Assembly: GCA_007224835.1 (NCBI GenBank)
Contig: SRMA01025500.1
Span: 21,870 to 85,869 of the forward strand
Direction: 5' to 3'
Source of the DNA: Danionella cerebrum
Lineage: Eukaryota
Length of the DNA: 64,000 nucleotides
The notes beneath the pieces were generated by a model, which saw only the letters and a list, made by a program, of their open reading frames with translations, did not search any database and was not told the origin of the DNA. Every line of letters starts with the position of its first letter. The first letter of the stretch is position 1. Positions 2,356 to 52,556 of the stretch are shown piece by piece. The position numbers and the translations under genes were made by a program.

Positions 2356-3089
2356 CACTTAGAGGTCCAGGGCCTTTTTGAGCGTTTTTGCTATATTACA
2401 TTTTCTCTAATAAATTACCTTAATAAATAAACAATATTAAAGCTTGATATAATTTTTAGTACAACCCCATCTTCTTTTTTATTTAGAAATATTTTTCTTT
2501 ACATTACCCAATAATTCCACAATAAACCAGAAAATGTACAAGAAAATAAAATTCTGACAGTTAAATTGTAATTTTTTTCAGTGCAAAACGTAAAAAAATG
2601 AACAATTTTATGTTTAACAAAAATCAAGCGTTTTCTTGTAAAATAAAAATTCACAAATCCCTCAAACAAGCAAAGACAATGATAAAAAAATGTGAAAATT
2701 GTATAAAAAAATGGGCGAACCTCTTCTATACCTTTTACACTGTTTCAAGCACGTTTTGTTCCATTGTGCTTTCTTTTGTGCCAGAACCATATCGCAGGTC
2801 TTGTACTTCCATTGGTTATCCCTTCTTTTCACTACTACATGGCACTAATGGCACCAATTTGGGGTCCGTAAAATGAAACTGAAAGACAATCGTGCATTTT
2901 CTGACATTTTAATCATCTTCCAAATTGAGTCATAACTCTTGTAATGTTAATTTAAATGCAAAAATATCAAAACTGATAACCAAAAGAAATTAAAAATGTA
3001 TTTAAAAATACAACAATAGCTGGGTTGCATTATTCCTACTTAATTCAAAACAGCCGCTGTGATTGGTATATGCACCGGTGCCTGCAGGG
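2356..3089. mobile_element. piggyBac-like non-autonomous element (MITE), copy 1 of 5, apparently complete and flanked by TTAA
   Basis: TTAA at 2352-2355 and 3090-3093. Terminal CACTTAGAGGTCCAGGGCC at one end and GCCTGCAGGG at the other. The same family (shared motifs 'tcttttcaccactagatggcac', 'ctgaaagacaatcg', 'cctttttgaaacctac') recurs at 17.8, 28.7, 34.8 and 51.8 kb. The best-preserved termini read CCCTTAGAAAGTCTGGGGCC, which resembles the canonical piggyBac end CCCTAGAAAGATA. Confidence 0.55.
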
Positions 3090-3171: not shown

Positions 3172-3893
3172 CAGGGCTCTAGACTAACTTTTTGCACTGG
3201 TTGCACTGGTGCGCCTAAATTTTTTTCTTAGGTGCACCAGCACAAAAGTTAGGTGCACCCAAATTTTCAACTGCATCACATTTAACACCGCATTTTCACA
3301 AGTTCACTTTTTTAGTTCTCTATTTATTATTTTTTTTAAATCACTGTCCATAGACAATATTGACTTGTAAATGATTAACTCGCGTAACATCATTGCTGTA
3401 CGTCGGGTTTACGTTCAAGCCATTTTTCTTCATAAGAATTATTTCGGACTTGAATTTAGTGAAGGGGAGTTCTTCTTTTGCAATATTGTAGGCAACGTTA
3501 AACTTAATTCTCATCTCGGCCTCGTCTGATCTGTTTGCAGCTGCCTGCCGCTGTAAAGGTAGTTCACATCGAACGTGGTTCGCGCGGTAAGCGCGGAGGG
3601 TTTCCATGTTAAGTCAATGCAAAGACGCGTTTGCGCGCGTCTGAGGCTTCAGCGGCGCGGTAAACGCGAATTGAGAGGCGCGCTTGCCGCGATAGGCGCG
3701 TATTGAGCCGCATGAATGGGTGATACGCGTGTTGTGAGCCGCGCGCAGGAGGCGGAGCGGCCGTAGACGGAATTTCGTTTTTTTTCCCACTCGAACGACG
3801 GGTCGCACCGGTGCAACCTTTGATTTTTTTTAGTCGCACCATTGAGAAATTTGGTCGCATATGCGACCAAATTGGTCGCACTCTAGAGCCCTG
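3172..3893. mobile_element. Non-autonomous DNA transposon with 12-bp TIR (cagggctctaga / tctagagccctg) and 5-bp TSD TGAAG
   Basis: Perfect 12-bp TIR at 3172-3183 and 3882-3893. Identical 5-bp direct repeats tgaag at 3167-3171 and 3894-3898. Subterminal repeats ggtgcacc / ggtcgcac are present at both ends. Internal 3600-3780 is a CpG-rich block unlike the surrounding AT-rich DNA. Confidence 0.7.
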
Positions 3894-4865
3894 TGAAGAA
3901 CTGGTTCCCATTACATTAGTCAAATAAATAAACAGAATTCAGGCCATGTACAGAAATACTACATTTAAAACAGGCTGAACTCATATTTGGTTCACATGAG
4001 TAAAACATCATTATCACGGAGGGTTATACGAGATGAGATCAAGTTATGGTATATGATTTTAACTACTAAAAGTATTGTAGTCTCCAAAAATGTAGCTTTA
4101 AAACTCATTAAGATGGATCTCCCAGGTCAGGACAGGCACTGTAGTCAGCGCCTCAGCTGCAGAGCGAAAAAAAACAAAACGGGTCTTTTAGTACAGACTA
4201 AAGTGGGGAGGGGGGCTACACTGCTTCCTGTGTGTGAGGGTGAGCAGCTGGTGGCACAGCTGTACTAGTCTGTATGTGCATTCGTGTCTGTGAGAAATTA
4301 ACTATATATACACAAGACTGGGACCCTGTTTTCCTGCTTGATGGGAAACACCCCACTGGAAGGACATGGGGAGGCAGCATACATAGATTTAATTAGATAC
4401 AGGAGCATTAGGGTAGTAAACAAGACATGACTAAAGCAGAGCTCAGCTCTGAGAGAGAAGCAGTGGATATCAGACGTTTTTCAGCAAACGAAAGCCTTGA
4501 CACAGTAAATTAATAATTGAAATTCTGTTTTGTTAAACAAGTTGTGACCGTGTTCAGTAGTGAACCAAATGTGAACGTTGGCTGATTGCAACATATAAGA
4601 CACTAAACATAAAAAGTTTAATAAACTATTCAATTATTGATGAAATGAAGTCCTTGCTTTATTCTCGGAGTAGAACATTCAAGAAAAATTACAAAAAAAG
4701 GAGGCTTCATGTTAAAAATAGAGGCTGCCCCTACTGGGATCCAACCGGCATCAATAATGTAACCGTGTCATGACGTCTTTGTTCTTACAAGTTGAGCCAA
4801 ATATACTTATATTATATAATCTATTTATATAATCTTAACTAATATACTTACCTGTAATTATTCAC

Positions 4866-4988
4866 TGCGATGGACTGGTGACCTGTCAAGGGTATACCCC
4901 CCCCCTCTCGCCTGAGCTGGAAATAGGCACCAGCAGACCCCTGTGACCCCGTAAGGTAATAATTGGGTTAGAAAATGAATGAATGTAG
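4866..4988 (+). mobile_element. tRNA-derived SINE, 3' fragment (conserved core + gaaaatgaatgaatg tail)
   Basis: Contains 'ggactggtgacctgtcaagggtatacccc...ctctcgcc...ccctgtgaccccgtaagg...gaaaatgaatgaatg', matching the full copies at 26.6, 29.5 and 33.0 kb. Confidence 0.6.
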
Positions 4989-18663: not shown

Positions 18664-20472
18664 AGGCCCTGGACTTCTCAAAGTTAATAATTTGCACAAC
18701 AATGAAAGAAGCTCCTGTAGAAAATGTTTCCTCTAGGTCTAGTACAATATGTTGAAACATTTTAAATCTTTTAAGTTTAAGTAGGGGAATGAAACAATAA
18801 AATAATGGAGAGTTCCGCATGAAGTTCATATATCCTTGTCAACTCGTACACATCTCACACCGGAAGATTTCGAGTTTAAGGGTATTGGCTATATGTGTGT
18901 AGGGGATAGGGGGGGGGTCAAGCTATTCTGTGTATGGCAGCAGTATAGAAGTGGGGGAGGGAGAGGCTTACTTAAGAGAGATTTGAAAAAGTGACGCACA
19001 GTGTATAAATAATTATAAGTTATAAGATGTATTCTTATGTGTCTGGTTTTTCTTTAAAACAATATTTGATAAAACAAAGCTATTGCTACAAATATACATA
19101 TTGATGCAGTTATGATTTAAATTATCTATTTTAACCGTACTATGTTCCAATGACTCCAGTCAGTTACATAAGCCTGCAAGACTTAGAACATAATGTGATT
19201 CAGCAAAAAAAACATTCCCTTAGTATCCAGGTCAGAGCTCTGGTCAGGTCTTCTATGTTTTTCTGTAACTGGGGATAAGCCTGAAGTAGCAACCAAAGAT
19301 AAATTCGAAGTAAAAACAGCCATGGGGGCAGATAGGAGCCTTCCAACCCAACCCCCTACTGTGCGTTTCCATTTTGTTGAGATCTAATCTGAAGCACTTC
19401 AAGCAAAGCACACACCTACAGTAAACACAAATACAGAGAGAGGGAACCAAAAATAAACCTCAGAGGGAAGACAACGAACACAGCCGATTCAAAATACAAC
19501 ACATTATAAGCTGATAAAGTAGTCTTGATAAGAAAACAATAGAAAAGTGACACACCCTCAGTAAACTTTATTGACCTCTCTGTTTGAACTCGAGGGATGC
19601 AATGTAAGCACAATTGTTTAGTTCACCACAAAAGTACAAGTGAGGATCCACTAAATAAATATAGAATCAAAGGCCTTCGTCCTCTGATATGCTCTGAATC
19701 TGCAGATATGCCTAAATAAATGCCCATGAATTAAATGCAACAGTATTAAGCATGCTAAAAGTTCAGTCCGTTCTCATACATTTTTAATGCAGAACTTTGG
19801 GATGAACATTAAAATGTTCAAATGGATAGAACATCCAAGAGGCTGACTTCAAGAACACACTTCATAATTAAACGCTGCATATTCTAAATAATGTGAGAAA
19901 AAAACAGGTTAAATGAGGGTATGTCGACTGGAATTCTGTCTTCCTCCTTTTTATATATTCAGTCAAACTTTTTCTGTTTCAAAATGTAAAAATGAACATA
20001 AAACGGCACGTGAGATTTCTCAATAATTGATACCGCTCTTTAGGTAATTTAAGAAAAAAAAACTACCAAGACATCTCATTCCCTTCTTAATTCTATCCTA
20101 CCCCTTATAATAAACTGCACTACTCTGTGTGAGAAATACCACTGACTAAATCACCTCAGATAAGAGTCAAGATATTCAAAGTCTTTGGCCTCTCAGAAAC
20201 TGAGAATATTTCTGCTAAACCAACAATCTGAAGAGTGCATACCATCTACATTTGCCACCACAGGACACAAATTCTGAAATTCTGAATGGGTACACAGCGA
20301 CTGAAAGTGTGATTTTTTATACTTTTATAATGCGTCATAAAACACCTCATTTTATTTGTTTGGAAAGAAATTTCTTTTCTTTATACTGATCTTATTTCAG
20401 CAGATTTGAATCTGTATGCGACAAACAAGGTTTTACATCATATTTAAAAGTCTTTGGAACTTCATAGTTTTA

Positions 20473-25904: not shown

Positions 25905-26035
25905 CTGTTCATCAGCCGGTTTTCTGTGAAGGACTGGCGACCTGTCCAGGGTGTACCCCTGCCTCTCACCCAATGTTCCCCCGTGACCCCGAAATGGAAT
26001 AAGCGGGGAGGAAAATGAATGAATGAATTGCCTGG
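25905..26035 (+). mobile_element. tRNA-derived SINE, 3' fragment
   Basis: 'gactggcgacctgtccagggtgtacccctgcctctcacccaatg...ccccgtgaccccgaaatggaataagcgg..gaaaatgaatgaatg'. Confidence 0.6.
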
Positions 26036-26590: not shown

Positions 26591-26885
26591 TGGCGGCACG
26601 GTGTCACTCCCTGGAAGGAGTTTGCACGTTCTTCCCGTGCTTGCGTGGGTTTCCTCCGGTTTCCCCCACAATCCCCAAAATCATGTGGTTAGGTTAATTG
26701 AATAATCTAAATTCCCCTTAGGTGTGAATGTGTGCGTGAATGTTGCCCTGCAATGGACTGGCGACCTGTCCAGGGTGTACCCCCACCTCTCGCCCAATGT
26801 GCGCTGGAGATAGGCATGGCCGACCCCCGTGACCCCAAAAAATGGATTAAGCGGGTTGGAGAAGGAATGAATGAATTAATGAATG
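26591..26885 (+). mobile_element. tRNA-derived SINE, full-length copy
   Basis: tRNA-like head 'ggcggcacggtg..', then 'gagtttgcacgttcttcc..gcgtgggtttcctccggtttcccccaca', then core 'tggcgacctgtccagggtgtacccc..ctctcgcccaatg', then tail 'gaatgaatgaattaatgaatgg'. Confidence 0.7.
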
Positions 26886-26939
26886 GTTTCCAAGCCTCCC
26901 TTAACTTAAAAGTACCATGACCCCACTCCATGCAGGTTT

Positions 26940-27180
26940 GAGGGAGCTAAATAGACCTTTTTTCCTTTAAAGAACCCCTGAAGCTCTTGTTTTGGTTCTT
27001 CACCGGTTCTTTGCCTGTTTGAGGGTGCACTATAGAACTTTTTTCACTTTAAAGAACCCCTTTTGCTCTTTTTGGTTCTTCACTGGTTTGTGTGTGCTAT
27101 AAAGCACTTTTTTGCTCTAAAGAACCCTAAGCTCTTTTTGGTTCATTACTGCTTCTTTGTGGTTTTGTGGTCCTGATATT
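26940..27180. repeat. Tandem repeat, about 60-bp unit x 3.5
   Basis: Iterated 'actttttt..ctttaaagaacccct...gctcttt(g)ttttggttcttcac.ggtt' units. Degenerate relatives continue to about 27440. Confidence 0.5.
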
Positions 27181-27899
27181 AGCGTAAAGAAACTATCATG
27201 GCCTTTTTCGTACTTATGGTTCTAAACCAGTTTTTATCAGATGCTGGTCATAAATATCATGCCAAAAGTGGTTTAGTACATAAATTTGATGTATTCTAAA
27301 TATACAGGTTCATAAAGGTTCTGAATATCACCTTTGAACATTGGTTCTAAATAGCACTTTCAAGATAAGTGTTAAATGGCACCAAAAAGGTTCCACTTGA
27401 AACCAAAAACAAACACATTTGGTTCTACACAGAACTTTTGTTTTTAGGAGTACTGTATAGTAAATCTTAACATTTTAAGAGAAATCATGCGTGAAATCCA
27501 AGCAGTTAGGCGAGGAAGGTACAGTTGAAAATCAGTTTATCATTCATTACAAGAAGTGCACAAATGACCCGAGATAACCTGCATTGTTCTCCAGTTAAAC
27601 ACCAGTGCTCAAGCCCAAACAAACAGGATCTTTTGAGTAACAATTTGGCTTCCAGCATGACCATCTAACTTATCAAACCATGAAATTATATATTAATAAA
27701 AAGGTTCCAAACTATTTATATTCATAAAAAACACACATTATACATATTACTACACGTTAATGTTAAAACAAGCACTTACCCATAACAACAAAGGCTGTAA
27801 CGAACCATTTGATATCCATGGTTGTCCTGCTTTCGGCAACTGATATTAAGTCCAAATATGGATTAAAAAGCGACAATAAATCCCTGTCTTTAAACAGAC

Positions 27900-28480
27900 T
27901 TTGGGGAGCGAGTTGAGCTAGAGTTGTGACCGCGTCGCGTACACCTGTTCGGACCGCGTGCGAGAGCGACCGACTCCACGAAATTCAATTTCTCCCGGGT
28001 CTAATGAATTCCAAGCGGCTACGACGAATATTCTGCCCGTATTTGTTAAAAGACGTTTTTAGTATTTAATAAAACCTTTAGGTCCTCCGACAGATAAAGT
28101 CCTCCGTAGACGAGAGAGCCCGATGCTGTGAGTTCTCCGCTCCGTCGCGTCGCTCTCCTGCAGCCCACGCGTGGTGGAGGAGTGAGTCCGGTTTGACCAG
28201 CTCCCCCTCAGATAAGCGGCTCGCTGCGGTCCTTGAAACTTCCGTTATCTTTGCAGGACGGGTTCGAGGAGACGTACGCGTTCGCCGTGCGTTGCAGAGC
28301 AGTGCGGTGATGCTTCCGTGCGCGCGTTCACCTTCAGCGCTATTGTCACACGCGCGACAAAAGGCAGAAGGCGGCCCTGCCCATCCCGTACTTTCAATCA
28401 CGAGCAGCCTCCGAGGAGGAGACCACAAGGGAAATCCTGCCTAAGACCACTGCGGTGGCAGGGAGTTCAACCCCTCAAAG
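27900..28480. promoter_or_regulatory. CpG island, candidate promoter / 5' end of a host gene
   Basis: GC- and CpG-dense block (gaccgcgtcgcgtacacctgttcggaccgcgtgcgagagcgaccg...gcccacgcgtggtgg...gacgtacgcgttcgccgtgcg...) that contrasts sharply with the flanking AT-rich DNA. It is not part of any repeat copy seen elsewhere in the window. Confidence 0.5.
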
Positions 28481-28746
28481 TCTTACATTCTAAGACAAGT
28501 GGTAATGGTCCACAATTTGAAAAGAACAATTCAGCTCTAGAAATGTAATTTTTGTAAATCTGTTCACTCCTAACTGTTTAAGTTTCTCTTGTTTTGTTTA
28601 TGTCGTCGCGTGGCTTAGGTGAAAGTTGTTAAACATGGAACTTGAACTAGTAACCTATTTCCGTTTGCCTTGCTCGTTCTCATTCAAAGATACTCTAGTC
28701 TAGGCTCAAACTAAACCCCGCCCCCATGACGTAACATCACACTTAA

Positions 28747-29341
28747 CCCCTCCTTTCACCAGGTAAATAAAACAAGTACAATTTACCTCTAAAACTGTTT
28801 TTTGTGACAATGCTTGATATAGTTTTGTAATACAACCGCAGCTTCTTTTTTTATTTTACAAATATGTTTTTCATTACATTACACAATAATTTCAAAACAA
28901 ACCTAAAATTGTACCGGGAAAAAAAAAACAATTTAAAATTTTTAACTGTTAAATGTTTTAATTTTTTCCATCTGTTTTTATTTTTTATAACAATAATAAC
29001 AAAATAACATTTCATAATAAGATAAAATAACAATTCATAAATCATCCCAAAAAAAGAATGAAAATTATAGAAATACACCAAAAGAACATTTCATAAACCG
29101 TATACACTGTTCCAAGTACTTTTTGTGCCATAGCATTGGAAAAAACAAGCCATATTACAGGTTTTGTACTTCCTATGGTTATCTCTTCTTCTCACCACTA
29201 GATGGCACCAATCTTTTAATCTATGTTCAAAACAGAAATTATAAAAACGAATAACCTTTTTGAAACCTACCCATAATATTTGATATAAAAGTCAAATAAT
29301 AGGTGGGTTGCGTCACCAGGTTGCGCAGAAACGTCTAAGCG
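28747..29341. mobile_element. piggyBac-like MITE, copy 3 (TTAA at 28743-28746)
   Basis: Shares 'tcttctcaccactagatggcacc', 'cctttttgaaacctacccataatatttgatataaaagtc' and the end '..ggtgggttgcgtcaccaggttgcgcag' with the other copies. Confidence 0.45.
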
Positions 29342-29544
29342 TTTAACATACAAATAACTTCATGTTTAGTGTTATATCTTCTGTAAAAAAGGAATTACAG
29401 ATACATAAAATGTACAATGTATAAAAGTCAATATTTCAAAAAAGTATTTTTAACGAATCACTGAGAAGGTGTTTTCTTCTCTGGGAGATCAATATTAGAA
29501 GTAACACTGTTTTTTCATGAGCTTTTCTAAATGAAGTACTGGTG

Positions 29545-29799
29545 TGGGCAGCACGGTGGCGCAGTGGATAGCACTGCGGCCTTCCAGTTAGAAGGTTGCT
29601 GTTTCAAGGTTTGCTGGTGACCTTCCTGCAAGTAGTTTGCATGTTCTCCCCCGTTTCTCTGGGTTCCCCAACAATCCCAAAAACTTGCATGTGAGTGTGT
29701 GTTGTCCTGCAATAGACCAGTGATGTGAGCTGGAGATAGGCCCCAGCAGACCCCCGTGACCCCGAAAGGGAATAAGCGGGATGGAAAATGAATGAATGA
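29545..29799 (+). mobile_element. tRNA-derived SINE, full-length copy
   Basis: Head 'gggcagcacggtggcgcagtggatagcactgcggccttccagttagaaggttgctgtttcaaggtttgctggtgacc' with tRNA-like A/B boxes. Then 'gtttgcatgttctccc', then core, then 'gaaaatgaatgaatga'. Confidence 0.7.
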
Positions 29800-31689
29800 T
29801 TGATAAAGTACTGGTGTGAGTCCATCCTGGGTTTGTTCCTGGTGTTTTAAAAAGAAGATGGGTAATGCTGAATAAAGCATCAACTTTGCCATATGGTCAT
29901 TCACTTAACCAAAAAAGTGGCGGTATGGTGGTGTTGGTTATTCTAGCAAGCCACTGTTAATAATGCGGCTAAAAGGTTACACGTTTTAACGTTTTGGTTT
30001 TAAAGGTTTGGTAACAAAGGTTACAAGAGATATGACACTATTAACAAGTGACACGATGTGCAATCATCTTTCAGTTTACGGACTCCAAATCGGTGCCATC
30101 AGTGCCATCTTGGGATGAAAACCCTTGGAAGCACAATACCTGTGATATAAGACAATTTAATTCTCAGAATTTTTTTTAACAATTTCTTGATTGTTTTGAA
30201 CTAGAAAAAGTATATCAAGCACTGACACAAAAAAAACTGTTTAAAAATAAAATTTCTTAGAGCAAATTCGTGAAATGCTCAAAATGGCTGCAGACTTGCC
30301 GTAATAACTTGACTGAACAAACGAGATGTTATAGATGTCTCTCTGACATTACTTTTATCTCTTGATGTATTGCAAAACACTAAACCATCTCTGTTTACAT
30401 CAACAACTGACAGCCGTCTTAAGTTATATGTAACATTTAATAATGTGATAGGATTTGGATTGATTTTGTTAAGCATCATCATTGTTAAGTGCCTTGCTAA
30501 AAGACCTAGCGATGCCGCCTGGAGCCAAAAAACTCAATTTCCTGGGCAAAAGCTTTACTCGGGTTCCCAACTCAGCAATTCAAGCTTCCTGTTTATAGCA
30601 TAATAACATATGTATCATTTATAATGCAGTATGGTTGTCATAAACATATAAACCCTTATCTTTTCAAATGCACAGATTGTTTTAGTTTAGTTTGTTCCTA
30701 CACAGAATTCACACATATGCAGCTACATTTATAAATATTTATAATATAGCTGTCCCGCTGTAACAGGATGAGTGGAAAGCAAGCACTGCAGCTAAGATGT
30801 ACTGTTACATGGTTTAATTCACTCAAGAAACAAGGAGTGAGGAGTACAGTGCCTCAAAAACCAATCATTGACAAAAAGAAACTGGGTGCAGAGGGACTAA
30901 ATACACATGGAAATCAAGACAACGAGGGAGTGACCGGATGTAAACAATGCGCTAACAGGTGGGGAACTAATGACCATGTGAAAACCAGAGACACTAAGTT
31001 CTGACAGTACCCTTGGCATGGCATCAGAGACATATCCAGCTGTATCTGCACCACTCTCAAAACACCAGCATGAGACTGGTGGGGTGGAGTCAAACAATTA
31101 TAATGCTCGTCACTACAGAATGTACTGTGGTGACACAAAGTTCGTAGGTTTGTGTGAGTTTCTTCACGCAGACATCTCCAGACCGTTCTAATGCTGGTGT
31201 CCCTGAAGTGATAATCACGTGATGTGGCTGCAGCTGGATTTTAATTTGTCCAAGGAGTGGGTTTGGGGCACAAGGGAACACACAGTCTTTGGGTGGGGGC
31301 AGTTCAAAGAAAAAGCTGGCATTTCAGAGGTTGAACCGACACCTGGTGGGTTGCTGAAAACCGATGCTCTGCCTAGGAGTTACTCAACTGAGCTGACACC
31401 AAGAACCCGGAGGGCTGTGAAGGTGCATGCATGATCTTTTTCATGGCGACTTAGGGTGTGGGGGTAGTGGGGTGGGAGATGGAGTTCATTCAAGCCTCTA
31501 TGACAGACTTAAGCCGGTCTAGACTGTGAGGTGACAACCTCCGAAAGTGGAGCTATAGGGGCGAGGAAGGATTCAAGACTGGAGGATCAAGGCTGTAGGG
31601 TCATGGACAATGGTAAAGCATGGGGACATGTTTGCATGTCCAAAAAGAGAACATAGAGAGAGGGTTTCCAATCTTTTAGTTTGACAGCA

Positions 31690-32949: not shown

Positions 32950-33268
32950 CATTCATTCATTTTTCAACCCGCTTATTTCCAACCGGGTTTGCCGGTGCCT
33001 ATCACATTGGGCGAGAGGTGGGGGTACACCCTGGACAGGTCACCGGTCCTTCGCAGGGCAACATTCACACCTGACAGTGAATTTAGATTATTCAATTAAC
33101 CTAACTGCATGTTTTTGGGATTGTGGGGGAAACCGGAGTACCCAGAGGAAACCCACGCAAGCACAGGGAGAACATGCAAACTCCTTGCAGGAAGGTCACT
33201 GGCAAGCCTTGAACTGGCAACCTCCTTACTGGAACGCAACAATGCTACCCACAGCACCACCATGGCTC
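32950..33268 (-). mobile_element. tRNA-derived SINE, full-length copy, minus orientation
   Basis: Exact reverse-complement organisation of the 26.6-kb copy: 'cattcattcattttt..ccgcttatttcc..gggcgagaggtgggggtacaccctggacaggtcaccgg...ggagaacatgcaaactcc...ggagccatggtggtgctgtgggtagc'. Confidence 0.7.
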
Positions 33269-38200: not shown

Positions 38201-38699
38201 TTTCTCCATTCGGTTTAAGTCCACTCCAAAGCTACAAGTATGAGGTTTGTGAGTGTATATTTCCTATTAATAACATACTCCAAGCCTCCAAGGTTTCCAT
38301 GTATAGAGCTCTTCTCATGTTTGTTTATCATGTTTTAATATTAACAAAATCACAGTGGAGACTCTATACAGAAAAACGTTCACATTTTCTTGCGTCTAAC
38401 TTGTTGTTCCACACCAACCACTCTAGTAAACACTTGCAAATCAGGACACACCAATAACTCCCATAGGAGAGCAACGTGGTCATGGTGTTGCTAGAGTACC
38501 CCCCCCCCCCTTATAGTAAGTACACAGGATTTGGGGTAGCCCTGCCACATTGGTCCTGTCTACGAAAACTCAATTGAAAACAAGGACTTGAATGGGAAAA
38601 TGGATTATCTGTGGAGCTTCCATTCAAGCTCCATCCAGTGCAAAAGATACTTTCAAAGTGGGACCAACTCCTAGCCACTTGAGGGTCTTAATCCAGAGA

Positions 38700-44303: not shown

Positions 44304-45042
44304 TAGGGGTGTAACGGTACGCTAAAATTGTATTCGGTTCGGTACAGTGTCTTGGAGAGTTCGGTTCGGTTCATTCGGTTCTGTACAAAACAATAACAAC
44401 TTACATAATCTTTATTTTGAAAAGCTGTCAATACACAGTAGAATTCATGCATAAAATAAATAAAAGTGACACATTTGGGTGATATTTTAAATGAATTGCA
44501 CTCTTTATTAAGAAAAACACATTTTTTTAAATAAAAAATGAAATACTGCAACTAGTTAGGATAGATAGGATGGATTAACCTACCCACATTTTCTGAAGAG
44601 AGCACAGATCTGGTTGCAGTGACAATATCTCCAGCAGTAGAAAATGTTAGATGTGTTGCCTGCCTGATCTCCGTGGAACAATGTCGGCATACAACTTTAA
44701 ATGTATCCACTCGTCTATCCCCCGTTATGTATTTTAACAGAGAAGCGAAAGTGTTCTCAAACAGGAGACTGTAGTGAGGTGGGAGGGTCTTCAAGCTCTG
44801 GCTTCTCTTTCGCTGTGTCCATTTCTCACAGCTACTTCGTGCAGCTCTACTGTGCGTCACTCAATAGCGTCCGTGCGGAAACTTGCCTAGGAACATTGTT
44901 CCGCTGCGCTTAATGTCGCGCTAATAATACATTTATATCATTTAATAAAAATACAGAATACCGAAACGGTACGCAAGTGTACCGAACCGAAGAGGCCGTA
45001 CCGAAACGGTTCAATACATCCCCGTGAACCGTTACACCCTTA
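44304..45042. mobile_element. hAT-type non-autonomous element (MITE) with 8-bp TSD
   Basis: TIR TAGGGGTGTAACGGTAC / GAACCGTTACACCCTTA. Flanking direct repeats atttctga (44296-44303) and atttctca (45043-45050), a 7/8 match. The 8-bp duplication is diagnostic of hAT. Subterminal cggttcggtac / ccgaaccgaa repeats are present. Confidence 0.7.
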
Positions 45043-46666
45043 ATTTCTCAATGTATTCTTATCTTACAGGATTTGTTTCACACCTGCCCAAAACATTTGC
45101 ACAGTACTGTGCATTAGTTTTGGACATGAGTGTTGTCAGAGCCTGTGAATCAGGTTTCTGTATTTCAGAAGTAGCCTGTTGACGGAGGGCGTCTTTAATA
45201 AGTAAAGGGCTCATTCTCTCCCTCACCATTGGATCTTTGACCGCGTCATCCAACCTTCTTCCTGTTTGTTTTGTAGCAGATTATTTTCTCTTTCCATCAA
45301 TGATGGGATTTATGGCTCTTTGGATGGAGCCGGACCTTTTGGATCCGTCCACTTTAAAGAGCCGTTCAAAAAACTGGCTCAATTTGCTCCTTCAATTTTT
45401 GACTTTTAAGAAACCAGCATGGGGTACATTTTTTTATTCTGGAAATAATCACAGGAATTATAAGCTGAGATTCTGTACCAATTTTTGAGTTTGAAATATT
45501 TGACTATTGCTTTATTTGACACATACTTATCCTTTGTATTAAATGTATGTGTGTAAAACTTTGACTTGTTATTTAATGAAACACCTAATTACTCATAAAG
45601 AACAAAGACGGCTTCAATAAAGTTTCACGCCAAAACCTTAAAGCAAAATTTCCACATAAGTACATTTTTAACAATACTGAAAAACTAATTAACAATATTT
45701 TAAAATTATATAAACCCAATAACAAAATAAGTAAAAAAAATACATACTACTATTTCCAAAATGATAAAACAGTTCCAGTCTTTATGGTGTCTCTCTTTTT
45801 TTTCTTTCTGCAAATTCGAATTGAGAAACACAAGTGCTCTCACTTTGGAATGTTTGAGGCGATTTCTCCTCTTTGTGAGTATTTTTCCAGTTTTGGAGAA
45901 AATTGTTCCACAACACAAAGCATTTAGCCACTAGTTGACTAAGCCTTGGATACACAGGTACCCGACTTTCCCACCACTTCAAAGGGTCTTTATTCTTAGG
46001 AACAAGTGGCTCCTCCATGACAGCGTCTGCTGTGGGGTTGCCAAGGTTCCAGCTTCCTGGTCATAGAGGTATACATCTACACATTTATCCCTCCTCCCCC
46101 CAGAGGAGAACAGCTCCCAATCAAACGCGACTTGGCTCCGATCGTTCATATTAATGAGACGTTCAAAAGATTCGATTCGTTTGTGAACGTCCCAACACTA
46201 CTTTCCATCTTGGAGACTGCAACCCTAGAAAGTTTTCCCTCAGAATCTCTTACCAACAGAACAATCGTCCCATCAACGTAACCAGCAGAGGAATGGTTTT
46301 TCCATCAAAAACAATTGATGGGTCTTTGAAGCCATGCGTGGAATGAATGAGTTCACCTTAAATAACAGTGTTTTACATGAGAAACACCTACCGTAATCAT
46401 TTATAGATTTCCATGTAATGGAGGCAAGTGGAAAGCTTACAAAGTGCACATCCAGATGCATATCCTCCCTTCCTAAATAAAAAAAACATTGAATCATCTT
46501 GAGAGAAATGGTAATCTGAGGTTCTTCTCATATGTAAACGTAAGGCTGTTTTTCAGAGGAAATGTATTAGATGATCAGAGATGAGAGGGTGGGCTGTACT
46601 TGTCACCTCTGAGATGTAATAGAGCAAACATCTTTTGAGTCATTAGGCTTAAGTAGTCATTGCTGA

Positions 46667-47513: not shown

Positions 47514-50500
47514 CTTCTTCTTCTACTTTCGGCTGTTCCCAGTTTAGGGGTCGCCACAGCGAATCATCCTTTTCCACCTAACTCTGTCTTCAGTATCCTC
47601 TACTCTTGCACCAACCATGTCCTCTTTCAGCACATCCATATATCTCGTCTTTGGCCTTCCTCTTGACCTCTTTCCTGGTAGCTCCATCTCCAACATCCTT
47701 CTACCAATATAACCACTATCCCTCCTCTGCACATGTCCAAACCATCTCAACCTGGCCTCTCTGACTTTGTCTCCAAAACAACCAACCTGAGCTGTCCCTC
47801 TGATGTGCTCGTTCCTAATCTTGTCCATCCTAGTCACTCCTAAACTGAACCTCAACATCCTCATCTCTGCTACTTCCAGCTCTGCCTCTTGTCTCTTCCT
47901 CACTGCCACAGTCTCCAACCCATACATCATAGCTGGTCTCACTACTGTTCTGTACACCTTTCCTTTGATTCTTGCTGACACTCTTCTGTCACACAACACC
48001 CCTGACACTTTTCTCCACCCACTCCAACCTGCCTGCACTCGTCTCTTCACCTCTTTTCCACACTCCCCGTCACACTGGACTGTTGACCCCAAATACCTAA
48101 ACTCCTGCACCTTCTTGACCTCATCCCCCTGTAACCTCACTGTTCTATTTCCCTCCCTCTCGTTCAAACACATGTATTCTGTCTTGCTGCGACTGACTTT
48201 CATTCCTCTTCTTTCTAGAGCTGACCTCCAACTTTCCAGGTTTTCCTCCACCTGCTCTCTGCTCTCACTACAAATTACAATGTCATCTGCAAACATCATT
48301 GTCCACGGCGATTCCTGCCTGACCTCATCTGTCAACCTGTCCATCACCATAGCAAATAAGAAGGGACTCAAAGCTGATCCTTGATGTAGCCCCACCTCCA
48401 CCTTGAACTCCTTTGTCTGACCTACAGCACATCTCACTGCTGTCTTACTTCTCTCATACATATCCTGAACTACTCTGACGTACTTCTCTGCCACTCCTGA
48501 CCTCCTCATACAGGACCATAGCTCTTCTCTTGGCACCCTGTCATACGCTTTTTCTAAATCCACAAAGACGCAGTGAAGCTCTTTCTGACCATCTCTGTAC
48601 TTCTCCATTAACAATCTCAGAGCAAAAATTGCATCAGTAGTGCTCTTCCTGGGCATGAAGCCATACTGCTGTTCACAAATATCCACTTCCCTTCTTAGCC
48701 TAGCTTCCACTACTCTTTCCCAAAGTTTCATTGTGTGGCTCATCAACTTTATGCCTCTGTAGTTGTTACAACTCTGCACATCACCCTTGTTCTTAAAGAT
48801 TGGTACTAGGACACTTCTCCTCCATTCCTCAGGCATCTTCTCACTCTCTAAAATCCTGTTGAATAACCTAGAAAGGAACTCCACTGCTGTCTCTCCTAGA
48901 CACTTCCACACCTCCACTGGTATGTCATCTGGACCAACAGCCTTTCCACTCTTCATTCTCCCCAGAGCCTTCCTCACCTCATCCTTTCTAATCTTTTCAA
49001 CTTCCTGCTCTACAGTATTCACCTCTTCCTCCCTTCTTTCCCTTTCATTCTCCTCATTCATCAACTCCTCAAAATACTCCTTCCATCTTCTCAGCACACT
49101 CTCCTCACTTGTTAGCACCTTTCCATCTCTATCTTTAATCACCCTTATCTGTTGCACATCCTTCCCATCTCTGTCTCTCTGTCTGGCTAATCTATACAAT
49201 TCCTTCTCGCCTTCCCTCGTGTCTAACCTGGCATACAACTCATCATATGCTTTCTGTTTGGCCTTTGCCACCTCCCTCTTCACTCTGCGCTGCGATTCCT
49301 TGTAGTCCTGTCTACTTTCTTCAGTCCTTTCAATGTCCCACTTCTTTTTAGCTAGCCTCTTCCTCTGGATGATGTCCTGTACTTCCTCATTCCACCACCA
49401 TGTTTCTTTATCTTCTTTCCTCCTTCCAGCTGACACACCTAGCACCTTTCTTCCTGTCTCCCTGATCAATTCTGCTGTAGTTTCCCAGTCATCTGGAAGC
49501 TCTTCCTGACCACCCAAAGCCTGTCTCAGCTTCTGTCTGAATTCTTCACAATCTTCTTCCTTTTTCAACTTCCACCACTTGGTCTTCTTTTCAATCTTTC
49601 GTCTTCTCTTCTTCCTGACCACCAGAAACATCCTACACATCACCATCCGATGCTGTCTGGCTACACTCTCCCCTACCACTACTTTACAGTCTCTGATCTC
49701 TCTCAGATTGGCTCGTCTACAAAGGATGTAGTCTACCTGCGTACTCCTCCCTCCACTCTTGTAGGTAACTCTATGTTCCTCCCTCTTCTGGAAATAAGTA
49801 TTAACTACAGCCATTTCCATCCTCTTGGCAAAGTCCACCACCATCTGTCCTTCTAGGTTCCTTTCCTTAACACCGTACCTGCCCATCACCTCCTCATCAC
49901 CTCTGTTGCCCTCGCCAACATGCCCGTTGAAATCTGCTCCCACTACTACTCTCTCCCCTCTGGGAACACTCTCAATCACCTCATCCAGCTCACTCCAAAA
50001 TCTCTCCTTCTCTTCCAACTTACAGCCTACTTGTGGAGCATAACCACTCACTACATTCAACATCACCCCTTCAGTTTCTAACTTCAAACTGATCACCCTG
50101 TCTGACACTCTTTTCACCTCTAAAACATTCCTCACAAACTCCTCCTTCAGGATCACTCCTACCCCATTTCTCTTCCTATCCACACCATAGTAAAACAGTT
50201 TGTATCCCCCTCCAATACTACGCCCTTTGCTACCCTTCCACCTGGTCTCCTGCACACACAGAATATCTACCTTTCTTCTCTCCATCATGTCCGCCAGCTC
50301 CCTACCCTTCCCTGTCATTGTACCAACGTTAAGAGTCCCTATTCTCAGATCTACACTCCTGCCTTTCCTGTTCTCTTTCTGTCGACGAATCCTTCTCCCT
50401 CCTCTCCTTCTTCGACAAACAGTAGTCCAATTTCCAGCGGCACCCTGTAAGTCAACAGCACCGGAGGCGGTCGTTGTTAACCCGGGCCTCGACCGATCCG

Positions 50501-50641
50501 GTATGAAAATCGATTTGGTGACTCGCATATTTGGTTTTGGCATATTTTACGCCGGATGCCCTTCCTGACGCAACCCTCTCTATTTATCCGGGCTTGGGAC
50601 CGGCACAGAAGTCACTGGCTTGCAACCCCTGAGGCTAGATT
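47514..50641 (-). mobile_element. Full-length non-LTR retrotransposon (single-ORF APE+RT, RTE-clade-like), about 3.13 kb, with 17-bp TSD
   Basis: Single 999-aa ORF with a 98-nt 5' UTR and a 30-nt 3' UTR ending in a (GAA)n tail ('..gtagaagaagaag'). Direct repeats cccatccatctccgagt (47497-47513) and cccatccacctccgagt (50642-50658). Removing the element rejoins one continuous repeat sequence. Confidence 0.85.
47544..50543 (-). CDS. LINE polyprotein: N-terminal AP endonuclease (EEP fold) + reverse transcriptase, 999 aa, no internal stops
   Basis: Endonuclease motifs: LNVGTMTGKGRELADMMERRKVDILCVQETRW, VVGADFNGHVG, TQVDYILCRR. RT motifs: PIFKNKGD, YGFMPRKSTTDAIF, HCVFVDLEKAYDRV, GLHQGSALSPFLFAMVMD, MMFADDIVI (FADD box). 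ATG at 50543-50541, stop TAA at 47546-47544. Confidence 0.85.
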   Translation of the reverse strand: MPKPNMRVTKSIFIPDRSRPGLTTTASGAVDLQGAAGNWTTVCRRRRGGRRIRRQKENRKGRSVDLRIGTLNVGTMTGKGRELADMMERRKVDILCVQETRWKGSKGRSIGGGYKLFYYGVDRKRNGVGVILKEEFVRNVLEVKRVSDRVISLKLETEGVMLNVVSGYAPQVGCKLEEKERFWSELDEVIESVPRGERVVVGADFNGHVGEGNRGDEEVMGRYGVKERNLEGQMVVDFAKRMEMAVVNTYFQKREEHRVTYKSGGRSTQVDYILCRRANLREIRDCKVVVGESVARQHRMVMCRMFLVVRKKRRRKIEKKTKWWKLKKEEDCEEFRQKLRQALGGQEELPDDWETTAELIRETGRKVLGVSAGRRKEDKETWWWNEEVQDIIQRKRLAKKKWDIERTEESRQDYKESQRRVKREVAKAKQKAYDELYARLDTREGEKELYRLARQRDRDGKDVQQIRVIKDRDGKVLTSEESVLRRWKEYFEELMNEENERERREEEVNTVEQEVEKIRKDEVRKALGRMKSGKAVGPDDIPVEVWKCLGETAVEFLSRLFNRILESEKMPEEWRRSVLVPIFKNKGDVQSCNNYRGIKLMSHTMKLWERVVEARLRREVDICEQQYGFMPRKSTTDAIFALRLLMEKYRDGQKELHCVFVDLEKAYDRVPREELWSCMRRSGVAEKYVRVVQDMYERSKTAVRCAVGQTKEFKVEVGLHQGSALSPFLFAMVMDRLTDEVRQESPWTMMFADDIVICSESREQVEENLESWRSALERRGMKVSRSKTEYMCLNEREGNRTVRLQGDEVKKVQEFRYLGSTVQCDGECGKEVKRRVQAGWSGWRKVSGVLCDRRVSARIKGKVYRTVVRPAMMYGLETVAVRKRQEAELEVAEMRMLRFSLGVTRMDKIRNEHIRGTAQVGCFGDKVREARLRWFGHVQRRDSGYIGRRMLEMELPGKRSRGRPKTRYMDVLKEDMVGARVEDTEDRVRWKRMIRCGDP

Positions 50642-51035
50642 CCCATCCACCTCCGAGTGCATTTTATAAAATAGAGCTCTTAAAAACCAAGCACTGGTCT
50701 ATATAAAAGGCCTCGTGCTGCCCTACACTCCCAGCAGGTCTCTGAGGTCATGTGACCAGGGTTTTCTGGTCGCCAAGAGAACCCGGTTAAAAATGAAAGG
50801 TGACAGTGCCTTTGCAGCACTGGCTCCCTCTCTCTGGAATCCCCTTCCTCTCAGCCTCAGATCCGTTGACTCAGTGTTTTCTTTTAAAAGACAGCTAAAG
50901 ACACATCTTTTTAAAATGGCTTTTTACTAATTGTTTTATATTCTCTATTCTGTGTTTTAATGTGAAGCATTTTGTGATCTGTTTATCTCGAAAGGTGCTA
51001 TATAAATAAATATATAATTATTATTAGTTACTCTG
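50642..51035 (+). repeat. 3' part of the interrupted older repeat (ends '..aaggtgctatataaataaatatataattattatta')
   Basis: Begins with the right copy of the TSD and continues 'gcattttataaaatagagctcttaaaaaccaagcactggtctatataaaaggcc...ctggctccctctctctggaatcccc..ctctcagcctcagatccgttgactcagtgttttcttttaaaagacagctaaagacacatc'. I recognise this motif from fish interspersed repeats. Confidence 0.5.
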
Positions 51036-51834: not shown

Positions 51835-52556
51835 TTTTTTGTACAACCTCAGCTTTTTTTTACAATGATATCTTTATTACATTACACAATAATTCCATAG
51901 CAAACCTGAAATTGTGAAAAAATTCAATTCTGACCAGAAACCTTATACACCGTGTGGACACATTTCCCATGTCTTGTACTTCCAATGGGCATCACTTCCT
52001 TTCACCACTAGATGGCACTGATAGCATGCATTTGGAGTCTGTAAAACGAAACTGAAAGACAGTCACTCATTTTCTCAATTTAAATACCAAATTATCTACC
52101 ATTCATTCATCTTTTAACCCCTTGTTTCGTTTCGGGGTCACGAGGGCCTGCCTTTCTCCAGCGCACTTCAGACAAGAGGTGGGGGTACTCCCTGGACAGG
52201 TCGCCAGTCCATCAAAGGGCAAAAAACACATTCAATTAACCTAAGGCATGTTTTTGGGATTGTTACCCGGAGGAAACCCACGCAAGCACAAGGAGAATAT
52301 GCAAACTCCTTCCAGGAAGCCTCAAACCCTGAACCTTCTATTTGGAAGCCCACAAAACCTTCTGCATCACCATGCCGCTCAATTATGTAGCGTACCTCTT
52401 GTAATGTTCTTTAAACCCAACAATTTCAGTGCTAATAACCTTTTTGAAACTTACATGTTAATTTTGGAATCAAAATTATAATAGTGGTTGGTCGCACCAT
52501 TCCTACTTAATACAAAACAGCTGATGTGATTGGCAAACGCACCGCTGTGTGCAGAG
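51835..52556. mobile_element. piggyBac-like MITE, copy 5 (5'-truncated) carrying a nested SINE
   Basis: 'gtacaacctcagcttttttttacaatg...ttcctttcaccactagatggcactgatagcatgcatttggagtctgtaaaacgaaactgaaagacagtc...cctttttgaaacttacatgtta...tggttggtcgcaccattcctacttaatacaaaacagctgatgtgattgg..gcaccgctgtgtgcagag'. Confidence 0.45.
52110..52380 (-). mobile_element. tRNA-derived SINE inserted inside the piggyBac-like MITE copy 5
   Basis: 'cattcattcatcttttaacccc..gtttcggggtcacgagggcctgcc...gacaagaggtgggggtactccctggacaggtcgccagtcc...ggagaatatgcaaactcc', the antisense of the SINE consensus seen elsewhere in the window. Confidence 0.6.

Follow-up and report, generated by a model that had tools for sequence, protein, structure and literature searches.

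What does a dense, undecayed cluster of CpG dinucleotides mark in a stretch of vertebrate DNA that is otherwise filled with transposons, and does a host gene start there? The window, by which we mean the whole stretch of 64,000 nucleotides that was analyzed and to which all positions refer, has a GC content of 0.391 and a CpG o/e of 0.45 and is thus CpG-depleted DNA of the methylated vertebrate type. Pfam searches with every ORF of 48 aa or more, on either strand of the whole window, returned only LINE, hAT and Tc1 domains and one doubtful L37ae-like ORF, and several dispersed repeat families are present in two to five copies each. This fits the proposal, made earlier from the sequence only, that a CpG-dense block and the short minus-strand exon adjoining it are the only host-gene candidate in the window. 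Because no host domain was found in the 64 kb, the CpG island has to be placed in a gene desert, a setting where one often meets orphan islands as well as enhancers and promoters of lncRNAs.

The transposons that fill the window are of several kinds. An intact LINE ORF (47544-50543, minus strand, 999 aa) carries Exo_endo_phos (1e-7) and RVT_1 (6e-39) domains. The closest relatives of its protein, with 85-89% identity and none reaching 90%, are almost all 'hypothetical proteins' of Hemibagrus guttatus, with further relatives in Silurus asotus and Pangasius djambal, and the assembly collection held no exact-protein record for the ORF. The LINE may belong to a recently active element, and it produces the strong negative GC skew seen at 47-51 kb. 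ORFs with the hAT dimerization domain lie within 44600-46300 (best E 7e-6, e.g. 45785-46060, minus strand) and represent a second hAT-type element. An element of about 1.45 kb at 28791-30241 is delimited by 36-nt inverted repeats (28791-28826 and 30206-30241, 83% complementary); a non-autonomous DNA transposon is its likely identity, and one copy of the dispersed SINE-like family lies inside it at 29552-29806. This family, the commonest repeat of the window with up to five copies, was mapped in both orientations to 26607-26877, 29552-29806, 32950-33264, 52092-52319, 4865-4986 and 25924-26029, and has frames reading '...GYTLDRSPV...' and '...GGTPWTGRQSIAGQH...'. The L37ae-like ORF (2565-2873, plus strand) matched Pfam Ribosomal_L37ae over residues 7-64 with 28.2 bits (gathering threshold 21.9; E 2e-6). 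It is lysine-rich and lies inside a repeat (2453-3087) that is present three times in the window, and a human RPL37A probe gave no tblastn match in the window; the ORF is probably spurious or an old captured fragment. An RPL37A promoter was rejected as the identity of the CpG island, as the L37ae match belongs to a repeat 25 kb from the island and has no relation to it.

The CpG island itself (27900-28480, unstranded) contains 56 CpG and has a GC content of 0.563. Its CpG have not decayed, as the o/e is 1.22 versus 0.45 for the window, and the 500-bp window with the top CpG count of all 64 kb belongs to this block. Merged 200-bp windows with the values by which Gardiner-Garden and Frommer define a CpG island (at least 200 bp, GC of at least 0.5 and CpG o/e of at least 0.6) extend over 28001-28550. 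The island is composed of two CpG-dense halves, 27900-28040 and 28085-28400, with an AT-rich patch between them. According to the intra-window repeat map, it sits in a repeat-free stretch of about 1.6 kb that reaches from about 27155 to 28790-28822. On the left this stretch is flanked by a dispersed repeat and tandem units of 70-80 bp (26607-27154), and on the right by the element with inverted repeats, which starts exactly at the end of the repeat-free block. Self-blastn of 27600-28900 gave just two trivial matches, both past 28798 inside the adjoining transposon, and neither self-blastn nor the repeat map detected a second copy or a fragment of 27900-28480 within the 64-kb window. The earlier description of the block as CpG-dense, non-repetitive and unique in the window was therefore borne out.

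We also considered other identities for the block. No TIR or direct repeats bounding it were found in a repeat search within the window, and no ORF inside the island, on either strand, had a Pfam match, TE domains included. An in-window repeat was ruled out, since the block is single copy and the nearest TIR pair belongs to the separate element at 28791-30241. A known RNA gene was ruled out because the respective scans came back empty: Rfam gave no match at the gathering threshold in the whole window and none at E≤1 in 27000-29500, and ARAGORN found no tRNA. Two ORFs of the island had no exact-protein record in the assembly collection.

Next to the island, the minus strand offers a candidate for the coding part of a first exon (27780-27819). 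It opens with an ATG at 27819 in the Kozak context ACAACCATGG, with A at -3 and G at +4, and comprises 40 nt, that is the ATG, 12 further codons and one base, encoding MDIKWFVTAFVVM followed by the first base (G) of an interrupted codon. It ends ...ATG G|GTAAGT at a consensus splice donor (TGG|GTAAGT, 27774-27779, minus strand) predicted from the sequence. The exon sequence is as first described, with one correction: the terminal 'G' of MDIKWFVTAFVVMG is part of a split codon, and the candidate exon thus ends in phase 1. Read-through in the frame of the ATG reaches a stop 5 codons past the donor; upstream, the same frame is open back to 27984 and contains no earlier ATG, giving a stop-to-stop ORF of 73 aa. 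With a rough vertebrate donor matrix applied to all GT dinucleotides in the window, the donor at 27779 scored 4.65 and stands at the 99.2nd percentile (56 of the 7212 GT sites score as high); between 28100 and 27300 it is the only minus-strand donor above 2.3. The start codon with its strong Kozak context and the GTAAGT donor, which belongs to the top 0.8% of GT sites, are both as the sequence-only reading had stated.

The same reading had called the encoded start hydrophobic and signal-peptide-like, and this, too, stood up to measurement. A polar MDIK is followed by a hydrophobic WFVTAFVVM, which is the layout expected of a signal peptide or signal anchor, namely a short polar n-region and then a hydrophobic h-region of 7-15 residues or more. 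The mean Kyte-Doolittle hydropathy of residues 5-13 is 2.26, a value equaled by only 2.5% of 1298 control frames (ATG-started 13-codon open frames in the window), although 13 residues are too few for calling a signal peptide and T-rich DNA easily gives hydrophobic codons. The full pattern of RNNATGG, an open frame and GTAAGT within 300 nt occurs four times in 128 kb of strand, or 0.031 times per kb per strand. The probability of meeting it by chance on the outward-facing 300-nt flank of a given island is about 0.02, a figure to be read with the caveat that the features of the exon candidate were partly chosen after the fact. The three other cases, at 52500-52455 (minus), 38482-38515 (plus) and 50285-50024 (minus), served as chance controls; none of them adjoins a host-type CpG island and one is located inside the LINE.

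The region upstream of the candidate start has a further property. An ATG-free run (27822-28383, minus strand) ends at the candidate start codon, so that consecutive minus-strand ATGs at 28384 and 27819 are 565 nt apart. No other gap between ATGs on either strand of the window is as long, and the second longest measures 369 nt. From the local dinucleotide composition 4.3 ATG are expected in it, and the simulated probability of finding none is 0.013, while the plus strand of the same segment contains 4 ATG, as expected, and is not depleted. 5' UTRs are poor in upstream AUGs, and the depletion is strongest close to the coding sequence (PMC7889888). In the light of this depletion, a strand-specific desert that ends at a Kozak ATG has the look of a real leader with its start codon. 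If the gene is real, just the leader, perhaps 220 nt of the desert, would be under selection, and the likelihood ratio of the test is accordingly modest. A strand-specific ATG desert is nonetheless a cheap additional test for candidate first exons. The putative 5' UTR, ATG-free on the minus strand, would cover 27820-28040, its upstream boundary being predicted. As is asked of a coding first exon, the first AUG lies in good context and its frame is open to a strong donor.

The search for a protein homologue and a second exon was negative throughout. None of 5.8 billion protein clusters shared three 5-residue words with the 73-aa exon ORF, and no protein beginning with MDIKWFVTAFVVM or a close variant was found in this collection. 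The collection includes the catfish proteomes of Hemibagrus guttatus, Silurus asotus and Pangasius djambal, which lends the missing homologue some weight; a 5-mer word filter would miss diverged orthologous signal peptides. Splice-aware enumeration of phase-1-compatible, non-repeat exons over the 27.8 kb downstream on the minus strand produced 26 candidates for exon 2, of which none had a homologue at E≤1 when they were searched together. One of them, at 19458, would lengthen the hydrophobic run to TM length; it was rejected on account of a weak acceptor and its lack of a homologue. In minus-strand ORFs across 165-27984, scanned against Pfam as concatenated ORFs of at least 35 aa and as 150 individual ORFs of at least 40 aa, we found no host domain, the sole match being a DDE_3 remnant of Tc1 type. 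Metagenome contigs were also scanned with exact 24-mers to detect a spliced or orthologous copy, with 0 matches. No in-phase downstream exon recognizable by homology or domain was thus present within the window, and of the expectation that the remainder of the gene would lie upstream of coordinate 27780 or beyond the window, the part that concerns the window was not borne out. Exon 2 may lie outside the window, and its absence therefore lowers the first-exon claim without excluding it. A first intron of more than 27 kb would be unusual for a catfish-sized genome. About 0.6 kb past the donor, the putative first intron contains three tandem units of about 70-80 bp with 72-79% identity (26935-27154).

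The anatomy of the putative promoter was examined by motif scan and by reading the sequence directly; the description that follows is of motifs, which prove no function. The AT-rich gap in the island (28040-28085) holds TATTTAATAAAA at 28064-28075, and in a 100-bp profile the GC content falls to 0.36 in 28000-28099 between flanks of about 0.6. This patch is the putative core promoter and TSS region of a minus-strand transcript and possibly of a divergent plus-strand one too. Strict consensus sequences of TATA (TATAWAW), CCAAT, NRF1, YY1 and ZNF143 were not found in the motif scan. Two ETS cores CGGAAG are present on the minus strand, at 28239-28244 and at 28313-28318, the latter adjoining CGCGCG clusters at 28321-28326 and 28351-28356; the island has two of the nine CGGAAG sites in the whole window. 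Approximately 0.9 kb upstream of the ATG at 27819, at the edge of the repeat-free block, a GC-box (CCCCGCCCCC) abuts a CRE-like TGACGTAA (28717-28734, unstranded), a pair that may be functionally relevant to the putative promoter.

A plus-strand donor-like site, GTG|GTAATG, had been taken as a hint of a bidirectional promoter, in which two transcription units begin no more than about 1 kb apart and run in divergent directions. The hint is a weak one, and the promoter may or may not be of this type. The GT is at 28502 rather than 28498, and the site is unremarkable, with a score of 0.45 on the same rough matrix, which places it at the 92nd percentile among all GT. Donor-like sites of better quality on the plus strand are GTGAGT at 28128 and 28182 and CAG|GTAAAT at 28763 (99th percentile). 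The last of these follows the GC-box and CRE-like TGACGTAA within 30 nt, and the segment 28717-28769 (plus strand) could mark a small plus-strand exon or be a coincidence. No plus-strand ORF or domain supporting a gene was found after the sites at 28128, 28182 and 28763, and none of the plus-strand ATGs in the island segment opens into a donor.

Taken together, the intrinsic signals favor a real minus-strand first exon with its start at 27819. In the reading that we prefer, 27900-28480 would be a promoter-type CpG island in a 1.6-kb transposon-free stretch of a repeat-filled, gene-poor region. It would most likely drive a minus-strand transcript that starts within the AT-rich patch of about 28040-28085 or close to it and carries an AUG-free leader of about 220 nt, with translation beginning at the ATG at 27819. 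The 13-residue hydrophobic N-terminus would either make up the n-region and h-region of a signal peptide or begin a signal anchor, and splicing from the GTAAGT at 27779 would proceed in phase 1 to exons past the left edge of the window; alternatively, the downstream exons may be too short or too lineage-specific to be recognized. That the locus is transcribed from this TSS and translated, that the donor is used and that the product is secreted or membrane-bound are all predictions of this model. A first exon is made less likely by the fact that neither a gene body nor a homologue was found and that CpG islands in fish are poor predictors, and we consider the chances of a promoter with a coding first exon at this place to be about even. 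Of the original claim that this is the first exon of a secreted or membrane protein gene, the island, the donor and the hydrophobicity stood, with the ATG desert added in its favor; homologue, exon 2 and domain are lacking. A special form of the preferred reading is that of a lineage-restricted orphan gene for a small secreted or single-pass membrane protein, with its own CpG-island promoter in a transposon-rich gene desert. Such a gene would be without a detectable relative in any public proteome, and we regard this as decidedly improbable.

Two further explanations compete with a promoter plus coding first exon. The island may be a genuine regulatory or non-methylated one and the coding interpretation wrong, which we hold to be somewhat unlikely. 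The MDIKW frame would then be a chance ORF, whether GTAAGT is used or not, and the island would belong to a lncRNA or divergent plus-strand promoter, to a promoter with a non-coding first exon or to the intergenic enhancer type. The peptide without homologue and the exon 2 that was not found point in this direction, as do the lack of any host-protein domain in 64 kb, with its gene-desert look, and the plus-strand donor-like sites in or just beyond the island (28128, 28182, 28763). In zebrafish, non-methylated islands are present at 64% of lncRNA TSSs, and among intergenic islands about 40% lie at putative enhancers, about 9% at non-coding TSSs and up to 8% at novel transcripts (PMC3583005). 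Difficult to reconcile with a spurious coding frame is the minus-specific ATG desert ending at a Kozak ATG, which neither an enhancer nor a non-coding RNA would be expected to show. On the plus strand, ATGs are as frequent as expected, and none of them leads into a donor. The combination of a hydrophobic frame with a perfect donor is likewise rare in the window.

The other explanation, which we consider unlikely, does without a promoter and takes the block for CpG-rich DNA that happens to occur once in the window, either a fragment of a dispersed element that is young or low in copy number or some other methylated DNA, the exon-like frame being coincidental. It draws on the fact that the other CpG-rich patches of the window are on transposon sequence. 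One is the second CpG island of the window (about 3300-3900; 46-53 CpG per 400-500 bp and an o/e of about 1.5), which overlaps and adjoins a hAT-like ORF fragment (3344-3613, minus strand, 'FNVAYNIAKEELPFTKF...') and looks transposon-associated; no Pfam match at E≤0.01 was obtained here. Another, at 44600-44900 (o/e about 1.0), adjoins ORFs with the hAT C-terminal dimerization domain, and a third, at 50200-50650, is the 5' part of the LINE. These patches keep a repeat origin of the block alive despite the lack of any TE hallmark in it, and the uniqueness of the block is a statement about the 64 kb of the window. Furthermore, computational prediction of CpG islands has been called unreliable in cold-blooded vertebrates, where computed islands are often away from promoters; in zebrafish they overlap 17% of TSSs versus 55% for experimentally mapped non-methylated islands (Long et al., PMC3583005). 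Methylation or transcript data are accordingly needed before a computed CpG island in fish is taken for a promoter. Against an origin from a repeat, no second copy or fragment exists within the 64 kb, where several repeat families occur more than once, no TE protein domain appears in any frame of the block, no terminal repeats bound it, the nearest TIR pair delimiting the separate element at 28791-30241, and two of its ORFs are not on record in the assembly collection. The strand-specific depletion of ATG would also be left unexplained.

If the promoter with its coding first exon is real, it is the place where a gene or transcript begins within 64 kb that are otherwise empty of genes and filled with transposons, which would be useful for annotating the locus and would imply no new mechanism. 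Among known systems, the very short first coding exon recalls the L-part1 exon of Ig and TCR V genes, with 40 nt here versus about 46 nt in V genes. As in the leader exons of secreted and Ig-superfamily genes, Met and a few polar residues are followed by a hydrophobic run and the exon ends in phase 1. A V-gene leader is followed by a V-domain exon about 80-150 bp downstream and then by a recombination signal sequence; here, by contrast, no V-set, Ig or other domain exon occurs within 27.8 kb downstream, and the ORFs at 27509-27664 and 27331-27474 (both minus strand) and all others downstream had no V-set or Ig Pfam match. The idea of an Ig V-gene leader exon, which the short phase-1 leader had suggested, was rejected for want of a V exon. 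CpG islands are not typical of Ig V promoters. With orphan or intergenic non-methylated islands of the lncRNA or enhancer type the locus has in common that its CpG island stands alone among transposons in a gene-poor region, no coding gene being recognizable, but ATG depletion that is confined to one strand and stops at a strong start codon, itself followed by a strong donor, is not expected of them. From vertebrate CpG-island promoters with a short coding first exon the locus differs in that no downstream exon or protein homologue was found. It resembles them in length, GC content and CpG o/e, which are those of the classical definition, in being free of repeats, and in combining motifs of the ETS, GC-box and CRE types with a leader that lacks AUG, an ATG in Kozak context and a donor of consensus sequence. 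The locus would accordingly work like an ordinary vertebrate CpG-island promoter, and nothing in it departs from textbook gene anatomy.
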